A stretch of 64,000 nucleotides of DNA from Perkinsus olseni. Lineage: Eukaryota. Location of the stretch: NCBI GenBank assembly GCA_013115125.1, contig JABANN010000052.1, forward strand, positions 1 through 64,000, given 5' to 3'. The position numbers were made by a program, and so were the translations under genes. Positions 48,482-55,826 of this stretch are shown here, piece after piece; within the stretch, counting starts at the first letter, position 1; the number at the start of each line of letters is the position of its first letter. A model generated the notes under the pieces. It worked only from the letters and a program-made list of their open reading frames with translations, made no database searches and had not been told where the DNA came from.

Positions 48482-51400
48482 ATGCAAAGTCTCCGGACGG
48501 GATCCGTTCGCTCTACACTAGTCACCTTTGGGAGTCTCGTCTTCACCGTAGCGAGTGTTCATGGAGGGGGCTTCTCACAGGACAGGGTAGGAGGGCAGGA
48601 CATGATGGCTGGAGGGCTTTAGGTCTCCTATCAGGCTAGCGATGCTATCGCGGATCAGTGCAGCGGTATCGTCATAGCGGGGGAGCATTCGACGAGAAGC
48701 CAGCTGGCCCAGGCGGCGTCCACCCGAGAGCATCCATATACCTTATGGGTAACCTCGAATGCTGTCTCGAATGCTTCGACTACCTCCGAGGTAGTACCTC
48801 GAACCCCTGCGCACTTGGTCTCCGTTCAGACTATTGGAGAGGACCGAGGGACGTTCTCGAAGCACGCATGCGAGAGAGTTATCGATTCCCCCAGGCGTAA
48901 CAAAGGGCTTCAGTATGAAGTTCTTACTAAGTGTGATGGCTTGTCTACGAAGGCCTACTTCCCAGACGAGGAGGCTGCTGTGGACTTCGCTGTTCAGTGG
49001 GGTCGCCTTCACGAGGTACCGCAACCATTTTGAACCGTAGGGGTTTATGATTGTCGTCTGGTAGTTCGAAGTGGACCCGGGAGTCCTGGGTGACGGGTGG
49101 GTCGACAAAAACCCCTTCTCACGGTTTGCTGTGTTCAAGAAGAAGCTAACAGCTGCTCATGTTAAGTTCGACAGGAGTCGGAGACCAGTTGAAAGGTTCC
49201 TCAAGGTGGCCGTTCGGATGAGCTCTGAGGCCCGGCCAGTATGTATGGATCCTCAGATCGGCAGCAAGACCGGTGTGTACTGCGAGGAGATGACAACCGG
49301 GCCTGTTAGTCACGGGGACAAATGGAAGCTGCGGGTGACGTGCACGAAGGAGAAGTCGAAGAAGACCAAGACCTTCGACATAGCGTTCAAGGACAAGAAT
49401 AGTGCAATGAGCTTGGCTACGATTTGGGGCGGTTGCGCTACTGAAGTGAGCAATTGCGCAGCCCAGAGGCGGTGTTATGACGAGGCTTTCGTTGTTCAGG
49501 TGCCAATGTCTGCTAAGACGACCAAAGGCTCGAGTATCCAGGCCGCTGAACTGCTCGTCAGCCCTGCCACTGGACGCGCTAGGAAGAGGATTATCCGGGT
49601 AGGATACATTGACTGTTGATAGTTTTTTGTTTGCGACTGTGAAAATGAGAGAGAAAATACGGAAATGAGTCGCGGTTGAGAGCCATGGGGATGCTCAACA
49701 CAATCTATTGAAGCGCTCCTGAAATTGAGGAGAGGTTTATTCAACGCTCGGCATGTTACAGCTTCGAGACAAGAAACCGATGACGTGCCGTGCCGTCGCC
49801 GACGTTCTCTACAAGGGTGATGCCGCTGACGTCATAGTGGAGTGTGACAAGGAGATGCTCACGATACCATTCACTGCCTATCAGCGTGCTGAGAGGTTCG
49901 CTGCACGCTGGGGCGGCTTTAAGAAAGTGCGTCGCTCCGCCTTGGGAGGATATAATAGTCGTGAGCAGGTCGATGAGGATGTTGTCGAGAGTTGCCCCAA
50001 GATGGAGATAGCTGGACATGTCGATGATCTCGTCAGAGCCACATCCGATGTGGGCTCGCTGGGAAAGAAGATCATCGCAGGTCGGCTGGAGGTGAGCAGT
50101 TGGGCTGTGGAGGTGGAAGGCACACTGCAGCTCTAGAGACGCGGATGAACACGAGATTGTGGGACAGTTGGGGTCTCATGTGCGTGAATGACTTGGCAAA
50201 CCCCTCACCTCTTGTCGCCAATCGCGAGGACTAGCTTCAGAATGATTCGCACGTCGGGTAGCCTCATTGCGGACGGGGCTCGATTGGCACAGTGCCATCG
50301 TTCAGACTAGCGACGGCTCCAAGCTTCGATGTGACCGTGTGAACGAGCCCGTGTCGTATGAAGGAGATATCGGCAAGTACACTGTGAAGACTAAGTGCCA
50401 AGATCGCACTACTAGAATCATCTGTGACAACGAGGATGCTGCCTGGAGATTCTCGGCCCAGTGGTCGAACTTCCGTGCAGGAGTGAGTTAGATTTTGCGG
50501 CTCTTCCTTCTCCGGAACAGATAGCTCCGCGGCAGAGCGTGGACATCCAGCCTAACTCCCATGATAGGTCTCAACCAATCTGGGTCTAGTAAGCGCCTCC
50601 ACCCGAGTCGAAGTCCACCACAACGGTAAGCTCTTCCCGTTCACTCTTGCTACCGCCAACGTCGAGAGCCACGTGAAGGCGCCTAGCGTTCGAATGCGCT
50701 GGTTGGGGGTAAGCTTCTACTTTCCCTCTCAACCACTCGTAACGTTCTCCTCAGCTACGTTATGCTGGCACATCCATCAAGGACGATCAGGAGCTCTCTC
50801 GGCAGTGGTTCGTGTGCTCGAAGGTGAAGACCATCAGAGAGACTGATGGCGGTACGAGCGACTCTCAGGACAGCGCTGCAGAGGGCGGGTCTCATTCTCT
50901 ACTCAGGTGAATATCATGTCGTTACTACCTGTGGCCTTTCAATCCGTAACCGCACGCCAAGCCCTGAGCACGGTGACAACGAAGTCGCGGTGGTCTTCGC
51001 CAAGAAGGAGCAAGCGACGGACTTCGCCGTACAGTGGGGTCAATACAATCCGGTGGGTCCCCTCTGTGTAAATGCTTCGCTCATCGAGGTGAGTTCAGAT
51101 GAATGTTCGCGATGTTGGCGCTATTTACTCCTCCGAACCGGTGGTGGATGTGGTCACGGCGGCCTACTACCGCGATACGTTATCCGGGAAGAGATCGGGA
51201 AATGCGTTCACTGTAAGGCTGCTGCTCAGCCCCACCTTTCTCGCGCCAAGAGCAGTGTATTCAGACTCGCGACGCTTCTTTCGAGTGCGGTGTGGTATCC
51301 GGAATGGAATACCAGATCGATGGCGACGTCCACTTGCGAACCGAGTGCTCAGGCGAGCGAAATGGCAAGGAACTTGCCCAGGCAGACGTGAGCCGGTGTC

Positions 51401-54400: not shown

Positions 54401-55826
54401 GCTAGCATAGAGTTGACAACGCTGCATAGTCACTTGAAGGCAGCGTGGCTCGACAGCGGGAAAGTAGACCTCAGCAAAGTCCGCATGTTCGTCCCGCGCC
54501 CCCAAACTGGTGGAAACAGCCCTACGCAGACGGGCGAGAGTGAGGAAGATAACATCTTGCAGGTGGGCAAAGTCTGGTGCTGAGTCGAGGTGGACTATTT
54601 GGCATTCAGATTGGCCCGGTGTCCTACAAGTGCGACCCCAGAGCTCCTCATCGCGTCTACTTCAAGCAGTTCTTCTACTACGTCACTATGCGGTGCAACG
54701 AATATTCACATGAGAAGGGGAACTCAGGAGAGGCCCACAAAGTCACCCTCATCGCGAATAGCGAGGAAGGTGCCCTCACCATGGCCCGAGCCTTTGCCAA
54801 GCTGGCGGTTGACAAGGTAAGAATGGTCAACCAAGCTCTTGTTCTCGATTACGCAGTGGCGGCATCACTCCATCACAGGTGTGGATCGACCCTACCCTGT
54901 ACTTCGCGGGCGAGGAAGGGGCCGCTATGATCGGCGATACGAAAGCTGACTTGACGAAGGCCTTCATCAACGTCTTCCCAAGGGAGTACGTGCTTGATGT
55001 GAGTCCGTAATGGCGATACGGCGATGAGCAGTCTTATGCACTTGTCAGTTCAATGGTGCTTTCCAATACAGCTGTGACGAAGCTTCCCAGGCGCCGCGGT
55101 TCACCACAGAGAATAAGTATCAAGTCTCACTAACATGCGGTAAGCGTGTTGGCGACGAGGAGCCGGAGCAAAAAGAACAAGTCGTGACCATTGCCTTCTC
55201 CACACCTTCGAAGGCTATTGGTTTCTCCAACGGCTTTGGAGGCCTTCTGTACCACGAGGTGTGCTCACCCGGTTCGGTCCTACGCTGCGAACCGTCCTTA
55301 TCATCAGGTTGACTTCGATCCCAGAATTACTCGCACTGTGAATTACATTGCACCAACACCCGAGCAGCATATGGGGAGAGAGGAGATTTACCCGCTGAAG
55401 CGCGCCACGGTGAAGTTCGACCTCAATGGTCGGCTCACGTCTCGTCGCATCGAGGTGGGCTGCTGCTCAACGTGTTTGTATTGATTAACCCTTTCCCAGT
55501 TCCTACGTGCCGATCAATTCTACGGCAGCGACAACGGCGAGCGCACCTACCATCCTGTTAAGTTCGAGTGCGATGAGAAGCTCATCCTGGACCGAAAGTC
55601 TGATAAGTCTGGCCGCATTCTCGCTACAACACTAACTGCGACGTGTGTCGAAACGTATGGCGGTTTCCACCAACAACACGGCGACAAGGTTAAACTCACG
55701 CTGGCCTTCCGAAGATTCCCCGAGGCCGCCGAGCCGTTCATGAGTTGGTGGCGCGGCAACTTTAGAGCTGTTGATATCCAAGGGGATTCTTCAGCGAACA
55801 GCGCTCAGGTTCCTGGGCTGCTATGA
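48482..55826 (+). CDS. Large secreted protein with ~14 tandem divergent two-cysteine domains
   Basis: Signal peptide MQSLRTGSVRSTLVTFGSLVFTVASVHG. The motif [FY]xC-x15-25-[YV]xVxxxC-x-beta strand-AxxFAxxWG recurs ~14 times across many short exons. Stop at TGA 55826. Confidence 0.75.
52864..52937 (+). tRNA. tRNA-Arg(TCT), intronic
   Basis: GCTCCGG...TTGGA CT TCT AA TCCAA...GCGGG TTCAAGT CCCGC CCGGAGT A, lying between donor GTGAGT (52801) and acceptor CAG (~52978). Confidence 0.95.

Follow-up and report, generated by a model that had tools for sequence, protein, structure and literature searches.

The window analysed here comprises 64,000 nucleotides (nt) of Perkinsus olseni DNA (GenBank assembly GCA_013115125.1, contig JABANN010000052.1, positions 1 to 64,000 of the forward strand) and contains a spliced gene on the plus strand at 48482–55826. 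A single reading frame opens with the ATG at 48482 and closes with the stop codon at 55824–55826, free of internal stops, through 36 exons and 35 GT..AG introns, and encodes a product of 1604 amino acids (aa). An earlier note, made from the DNA alone, had described this region as a secreted protein built from about 14 copies of an unrecognised disulfide-type domain with a PH-like ending. The present analysis agrees in the main point, since the locus is very probably one real gene for a secreted protein of 14 diverged tandem units, as indicated by a signal-peptide-like N-terminus, collinear orthologues and a leave-one-out test in which all 14 units were recovered. The features of the gene are listed below, where each unit consists of an N-half and a C-half, bits are the scores of a hidden Markov model (HMM) of the C-half, and a joint is an intron found spliced out in contigs of a public sequencing run (X1).

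48482–48586, plus strand: exon 1, signal-peptide-like, with a basic start, a run of about 15 hydrophobic residues and then small residues before GGG
48635–49015, plus strand: unit 1, exons 2–3 with intron 48749–48829; 61.7 bits
49065–49445, plus strand: unit 2, exons 4–5 with intron 49206–49256; 67.3 bits; joint in X1
49500–49926, plus strand: unit 3, exons 6–7 with intron 49599–49761; 48.0 bits; joint in X1
49969–50482, plus strand: unit 4, exons 8–9 with intron 50092–50305; 54.4 bits; extra cysteine pair
50568–51052, plus strand: unit 5, exons 10–12; 67.1 bits
51099–51509, plus strand: unit 6, exons 13–15; 51.6 bits; joints 51053–51098 and 51213–51264
51770–52211, plus strand: unit 7, exons 16–18; 59.8 bits; joint 52030–52115
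52280–52630, plus strand: unit 8, exons 19–20 with intron 52409–52453; 56.0 bits; extra cysteine pair; joints in X1 52212–52279 and 52409–52453; its P. olseni orthologue was folded
52687–53277, plus strand: unit 9, exons 21–23; 56.8 bits; extra cysteine pair and a fifth cysteine replacing the helix Trp; joint in X1 53105–53199
53326–53728, plus strand: unit 10, exons 24–26; 43.4 bits; extra cysteine pair; Leu replaces the helix Trp
53785–54351, plus strand: unit 11, exons 27–30; 61.5 bits; extra cysteine pair; joint 54228–54279
54401–54816, plus strand: unit 12, exons 31–32; 52.4 bits; weak in the leave-one-out test
54879–55258, plus strand: unit 13, exons 33–34; 62.6 bits; C-half of the P. 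marinus orthologue modelled with a predicted local distance difference test score (pLDDT) of about 80
55308–55826, plus strand: unit 14 and a short C-terminal tail, exons 35–36; 47.7 bits; joint 55259–55307

The exon chain was built by hand from the sequence and its stop-to-stop frames, with the coordinates checked by script, and was refined in two rounds, one by comparison with orthologue proteins and RNA joints and a later one by the collinearity of the orthologues. A splice model obtained by dynamic programming gave a frame-hopping product of 2033 aa and was dropped for hand curation. The introns are 42–260 nt long (median 52 nt) and lie in phase 0 in 34 of 35 cases, the sole exception being 50852–50906 within unit 5. 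Six introns of 42–81 nt (48749–48829, 49206–49256, 49446–49499, 49927–49968, 52409–52453 and 53278–53325) are in frame and stop-free, so the open reading frame tracks and some deposited annotations read through them. One of the six has an AAG acceptor, and three are spliced out according to the RNA joints. The 81-nt in-frame intron 48749–48829, outside the RNA joint cover, was inferred from the orthologue models, and intron 53866–53911 was chosen to agree with four of four orthologues.

The longest intron, intron 15 (51510–51769), has three possible in-phase acceptors, at 51685, 51736 and 51769. The acceptor preceding unit 7 was picked to agree with three of the four orthologue models, but the choice is ambiguous, and the deposited P. 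olseni model has yet another reading there. This intron holds a T/C-rich low-complexity stretch, with 51579–51606 skipped as a repeat in read mapping, and one contig matches it as far as 51647, beyond which its remaining 255 letters are unrelated.

Contigs of run X1, whose kind was guessed as 'RNA?' and which carries 29% of the sampled words, were compared with positions 48400–55900. Twelve joints were found, each skipping exactly one predicted intron with GT..AG ends: 49206–49256, 49599–49761, 49927–49968, 50092–50305, 51053–51098, 51213–51264, 52030–52115, 52212–52279, 52409–52453, 53105–53199, 54228–54279 and 55259–55307. Two of them, 49927–49968 and 50092–50305, are on one contig that joins three exons. 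Since the joints are exact, run X1 contains spliced transcripts (cDNA) of the gene, which is expressed. The exon chain spliced by hand in the earlier note had to be revised, to 35 introns, with six of them in frame and stop-free; RNA joints support 12 of the 35.

It could be argued that the long frame is an artefact of hand splicing that covers several genes or a decayed one. The RNA contigs are short, none with more than three exons, 23 of the 35 introns are without RNA support, and 5 of 30 bins are without X1 cover. In addition, and as a point against a single intact gene, one X1 contig (48565–48728) crosses intron 1 (48587–48634) unspliced; if the mature transcript retained this intron, the frame opened by the ATG at 48482 would end after 46 codons. 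That contig may represent pre-mRNA or DNA in the run. However, the frame is open across all 36 exons with a nearly uniform intron phase, 12 of 12 joints fall exactly on predicted introns, orthologues of three species are collinear end to end, and 40 of the 41 cysteines are conserved in them. An origin from several genes or from a decayed gene is therefore considered very improbable.

The orthologues used in the comparison are deposited protein models of three Perkinsus species:

P0001, P. olseni FOZ63_018940: 95.6% identical to the model, 14 C-half HMM domains
P0016, P. chesapeaki FOL47_009933: 73.2% identical, 14 C-half HMM domains
P0002, P. marinus Pmar_PMAR019671: collinear orthologue, 73.2% identical, 13 C-half HMM domains, without unit 8
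P0003, P. marinus Pmar_PMAR020114: collinear orthologue, 74.0% identical, 12 significant C-half HMM domains

The model of the window gene itself also gives 14 domains. Against P0016, an independent annotation, it is collinear over 1595 aligned residues at 73.2% identity, with one gap of 8 aa. Both P. marinus models miss exons (hence 13 and 12 significant units), and the number and order of units are conserved in the three species, which indicates that the array predates them and that its unit count is stable. Identity to P. chesapeaki of 73% compares with 93–97% in the clean segments of the neighbouring SRP54 gene, so the repeat protein evolves much faster than its neighbour and yet keeps its architecture. 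The deposited models carry splicing errors: P0001 keeps 49206–49256 as 17 in-frame residues, though RNA shows splicing, and skips the N-half exon of unit 9, while P0003 keeps the counterpart of the in-frame intron 52409–52453. The databases thus already contain the protein, as a hypothetical one that lacks annotation and is wrongly spliced.

At the N-terminus, two Arg residues are followed by the hydrophobic stretch of exon 1, which is conserved in P0001, P0002 and P0016. The most hydrophobic 19-residue segment of the protein lies here, at residue 13 (Kyte–Doolittle 1.41), and the next one, at residue 1007–1008, reaches 1.34, under a typical membrane span. By hydropathy, no glycosylphosphatidylinositol-like C-terminal end was found, the final 19 residues scoring 0.19. 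The whole protein has one N-x-S/T sequon and a pI of 5.9. A single gene for a secreted protein of 14 units is considered highly likely, with the signal-peptide-like N-terminus as the putative entry to the secretory pathway and, by hydropathy, no other membrane span.

After the N-terminus, the protein consists of the 14 units, of about 90–155 aa, whose limits are conserved intron positions. C-halves are 55–108 aa long, with a conserved module of about 60 aa, and N-halves 33–55 aa. The C-half skeleton is a hydrophobic-x-Cys-x-x-Val motif, a strand ending in a second Cys, a further strand and a helix of the type A..FA..WG, with the two core cysteines aligned in every unit (14 of 14). In the leave-one-out test, each C-half was scored with an HMM of the other 13 and compared with 200 composition-preserving shuffles per unit. 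Real scores were 6.5–37.9 bits and the best shuffle did not exceed 10.7 bits; in all 14 units, 0 of 200 shuffles reached the real score. The weakest were unit 14 (6.5 bits, shuffle maximum 4.8) and unit 12 (11.3 bits, shuffle maximum 6.5). Profile comparison with hhalign gave a probability of at least 50 for 26 of 91 C-half pairs. For the N-halves, leave-one-out scores fell among the shuffles and 0 of 91 hhalign pairs reached 50, with a best score of 18.6 against 14.1 in reversed controls. Isolated N-half exon rows, which MAFFT misplaced onto C-half columns, were excluded from the alignments.

The eight example motifs given in the earlier note were all present in the exon translations at their places, and the repeat skeleton it proposed stands in the C-half of 14 of 14 units by HMM against shuffles, while the N-halves cannot be aligned. 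Two of its details do not hold for every unit. The residue that opens the aromatic-x-Cys motif is strictly aromatic in half of the units (7 of 14), the remaining 7 having an aliphatic residue or His there, and the helix ends in Trp in 9 of 14 units, the residue being Phe in three, Leu in one and Cys in one. The unit it had outlined was also too small, as the real structural unit is larger and adds the variable N-half of about 33–55 aa.

A six-frame HMM scan of the window returned 19 matches, all on the plus strand between 48.6 and 55.8 kb; apart from one match at E = 0.38, the motif was not found elsewhere in the 64 kb. As the earlier note had remarked, there is no obvious repeat at the DNA level: the sole notable direct pair is 47 nt long with 72% identity, in the FAVQWG region of units 1 and 5. 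With only this pair left, the duplications appear to be old. All 13 unit borders carry a phase-0 intron, as do all 14 borders between N-half and C-half, and seven more introns lie at the signal-peptide border or in the interior of halves. From the introns at all unit and half borders it follows that the array grew by duplication of a two-exon cassette, with subsequent divergence up to the loss of similarity in the DNA.

Searches for relatives led to the same genus throughout. In a word-indexed search covering 5.8 billion proteins, the unit 2 query returned three proteins, all from Perkinsus, and the full-length P. olseni query four clusters, again all from Perkinsus and named 'hypothetical' or 'uncharacterized'. 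Pfam gave no credible family for 30 exon translations at E ≤ 1, with Opacity (13.2 bits) and DUF6411 (13.1 bits) at sub-threshold level (E about 0.1), and no family for P0001, P0003 and the P. marinus sequence P0005 at E ≤ 10, PH (PF00169) and its clan included. The repeat part of the four orthologues carries no Pfam domain. No match was found among PDB sequences by profile at E ≤ 10, and the ESM Atlas gave no usable match for unit 2 or for P0001 residues 795–896. In the library searched, no publications were found that cite the orthologue locus tags or treat this protein. The domain family, which the earlier note had called unrecognised, is undescribed by these sequence comparisons and confined to Perkinsus in the collections searched.

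An exhaustive profile search against 1.84 billion representatives returned 12 matches, of which five are Perkinsus fragments and seven are long bacterial repeat proteins (E from 1.7e-27 to 6.6e-4); its profile was made from nine single-exon pieces, mainly C-half, so that more distant relatives could escape. The bacterial matches, with their 'strand ... V.V.C.D' look, would suggest a distant relationship of the module to Ig-like or HYR-type repeats of bacteria. Nevertheless, their scores are sums over 5–16 near-identical repeats, and rescoring with the 14-unit HMM gave at most 9.3 bits per stretch, over 13–38 residues that never covered the helix. Moreover, the Perkinsus unit model has a C-terminal helix, unlike Ig-like folds. 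A relationship to these repeats is thus hardly credible.

The distribution of cysteines was examined across the orthologues. The model contains 41, of which all but one are Cys in every orthologue that aligns at the position. Two core cysteines in each of 14 units account for 28, and ten others form a second pattern in units 4, 8, 9, 10 and 11, one about 10 residues into the N-half and the other in the last strand before the helix. The single Cys pair per unit of the earlier note therefore holds for the core pair in 14 of 14 units but has to be completed with this second pair in five. The extra N-half and C-half cysteines occur both together in five units, both are absent in eight, the N-half one stands alone in one (unit 1) and the C-half one alone in none. 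An alternative pairing, of a C-half with the N-half of the following unit, fits three of the five. Their co-occurrence within the same unit suggests that the N-half and the C-half of one unit touch. Judging from conservation and position, both the core pair and the second pair are inferred to form disulfides.

Fold prediction was done with AlphaFold2 on unit 8 of P0001 (18 alignment rows). The model has a pLDDT of 76.6 and a predicted template modelling score of 0.66, with seven strands (residues 11–16, 21–31, 38–45, 50–56, 61–63, 66–73 and 76–82) and a C-terminal helix (85–94). The N-half is predicted with pLDDT 74–81 and contributes three strands inside the sandwich. C11 opens strand 1 and C82 closes strand 7, and by the predicted strand order they would sit on neighbouring antiparallel strands. 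A wide VIA-align search over 48,161 representative chains listed 50 rows, and all 50 belong to the PH-like superfold (PH, EVH1, RanBD, PTB, FERM-F3, Dcp1, pICln, TFIIH p62 and similar). The best match was the USP37 PH domain (3u12_B; Z 7.7, root-mean-square deviation (rmsd) 3.4 Å, 93 of 102 residues), with 82 chains at Z of at least 5. On the Foldseek top 1000, the same chain gave Z 8.0 and rmsd 3.2 Å over 92 aligned residues, with 151 chains at Z of at least 5. The PH-like call carries weight because the list is uniform and the coverage of the model is nearly complete. The earlier note had recognised a PH-like ending, and the unit 8 model would extend this likeness to the whole unit. For most units, a PH-like fold is considered probable on the strength of this prediction.

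The model is compared here with known PH-like structures, of which the USP37 PH domain (3u12) is the nearest solved. Shared features would be the seven antiparallel strands in two sheets and the C-terminal helix, as predicted, and, for 12 of 14 units, the presence of an aromatic residue (mostly Trp) around the C-terminal helix. In the nine units that have the helix Trp, it is the C-terminal end of the predicted helix that carries it, a position within the helix other than that of the canonical PH Trp. A basic phosphoinositide-binding motif was not found in the loop between strands 1 and 2 of unit 8 (GTGG), the only unit inspected for it. The Perkinsus protein differs from the superfold in having no sequence relationship to it, a signal-peptide-like start, one or two Cys pairs per module and 14 tandem modules. 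The known PH-like families belong to the cytosol or nucleus, are not known to have disulfides and are present as single or paired domains.

A different reading of the same data is that only the C-half of about 60 aa folds, the N-halves being variable spacers and the sandwich of unit 8 an AlphaFold artefact; the true fold could then be new or a small beta-alpha module. The lack of alignment among N-halves is in its favour, as is a second model, that of the P. marinus sequence P0005 (C-half of unit 12, unit 13 and N-half of unit 14; 17 rows), in which the unit 13 C-half is confident (about 80), with three strands and a helix, whereas its N-half is a low-confidence helix. However, the unit 8 N-half is modelled, at pLDDT 74–81, as part of the sandwich, the extra N-half cysteine goes with a C-half cysteine of the same unit in five of five cases and is conserved in orthologues, and the N-half length is confined to its narrow range. 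The N-half of unit 14 is also drawn as strands in the P0005 model (173–175, 183–190 and 196–203). Folding of the C-half alone is for these reasons regarded as unlikely. PAS-like matches of the P0005 model (Z up to 4.9) were rejected, as the model is poor.

Several points weigh against a PH-like, disulfide-stapled unit. The fold comes from a single moderately confident model of a single unit. Its Z is at most 8.0, a range that the tool flags as possibly 'only a common arrangement', and Foldseek with the unit 8 model found nothing at E ≤ 0.001, its top TM-score being 0.61, to the USP37 PH domain. The P0005 model has a pLDDT of only 57.4 and packs the C-half of unit 13 on the N-half of unit 14. 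Because the N-halves have no detectable similarity, their homology and a common fold of the 14 units are assumed. As to the cysteines, units 8–11 are adjacent, so that the co-occurrence of the extra pair does not amount to five independent events and shared ancestry is possible. Units 1 and 9 have an odd number of conserved cysteines, and unit 2 has a private one just after WG (near 49435; residue 242 of an earlier model), which is Tyr in four of four orthologues.

Taking these points together, the explanation judged best overall, and held with a little more belief than doubt, is a Perkinsus-restricted secreted scaffold or adhesin made of disulfide-stapled PH-like modules. Each whole unit, variable N-half and conserved C-half, would fold into a single seven-stranded PH-like beta-sandwich, with the C-terminal Trp-bearing helix as its cap. 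The core Cys pair would form a disulfide from strand 4 to the end of strand 6, and units 4, 8, 9, 10 and 11 would have a second one linking the start of strand 1 with the end of strand 7, both stabilising the modules outside the cell. The 14 modules may then form an elongated beads-on-a-string scaffold or a multivalent binder in the parasite wall, surface coat or secretions; possible ligands would be of host or parasite, or alternatively the protein could have a structural part in the wall or coat. The extracellular role itself, as scaffold or adhesin, can be put forward tentatively, its main alternative being a lumenal or organellar one.

The same protein and fold could instead act within a secretory organelle or vacuole of the trophozoite or zoospore, as its lumenal cargo or matrix. 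Alveolates store many disulfide-rich proteins in secretory organelles. The protein has a putative entry signal for the endoplasmic reticulum alone, no anchor and a single sequon, all of which would suit such a location and an extracellular one alike; on the other side, no retention or sorting motif was identified, although no dedicated search for one was made. A lumenal role is considered somewhat doubtful.

Returning to the extracellular scaffold or adhesin, tandem disulfide-bonded extracellular modules are well known in the Ig, FN3, EGF and CCP arrays of animals and in the SRS and 6-Cys surface proteins of apicomplexans. The Perkinsus protein resembles them in the putative signal peptide, beta-rich modules of similar size, Cys pairs and phase-0 border introns, and the introns at module borders make cassette duplication possible. 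It differs in the predicted fold, in having no Pfam similarity to them and in having no membrane anchor. It is conceivable, though we would not press it, that Perkinsus moved the PH-like superfold into the secretory pathway as an extracellular array of 14 modules, each stapled by one or two disulfides, with a use like that of Ig or FN3. It would then be a family of extracellular domains restricted to this lineage, without described relatives, and would belong to the wall, the coat or the host-binding secretions of the parasite.

Perkinsus species are agents of major disease in oysters and clams, yet hardly any of the proteins that they secrete or carry on their surface have been characterised. 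The gene defines a sequence family that is absent from domain databases and was found in Perkinsus alone in the collections searched, and its product is a candidate genus-specific marker or antigen. If the proposed fold and location are correct, it would be a rare use of the PH-like fold in a disulfide-bonded secreted repeat and would be relevant to the independent origin of extracellular module arrays outside animals. In addition, of the four deposited models compared, P0001 and P0003 treat in-frame, stop-free introns (42–81 nt) as coding sequence, and genomes with short introns therefore need RNA-guided re-annotation.

The surroundings of the repeat gene were inspected from 38000 to 48200 and from 56300 to 64000. 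No paralogue cluster was found there, and the neighbours are ordinary housekeeping genes, listed here with two tRNA genes:

39178–39567, minus strand: Fe/Mn superoxide dismutase
40759–41895, plus strand: glycerol-3-phosphate dehydrogenase
45028–45102, minus strand: tRNA-Arg(TCT), just before SRP54
45092–48188, plus strand: SRP54, directly upstream of the repeat gene and also upstream in the fused P. chesapeaki model
52864–52937, plus strand: tRNA-Arg(TCT) predicted by ARAGORN, nested in intron 52801–52978 on the same strand as the repeat gene
56656–57000, minus strand: B-box/ArfGap-like zinc finger
62202–62639, minus strand: TOP3B zinc ribbon

The fused model is P0016, a protein of 2306 aa that merges peptidase C1 and SRP54 (residues 1 to about 690) with the repeat protein. 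Its Pfam domains belong to the merged peptidase C1 and SRP54. In the window, no peptidase C1 match was found and SRP54 has its own stop at 48188, about 290 nt ahead of the ATG of the repeat gene. The merged model is probably an annotation error.

The two tRNA-Arg(TCT) genes differ only in the acceptor stem, at a few positions on either side of it. In contig depth, the bin with the nested tRNA ranks first in the region (45), and it is where contigs with differing flanks end, which is expected of a tRNA present in several copies.

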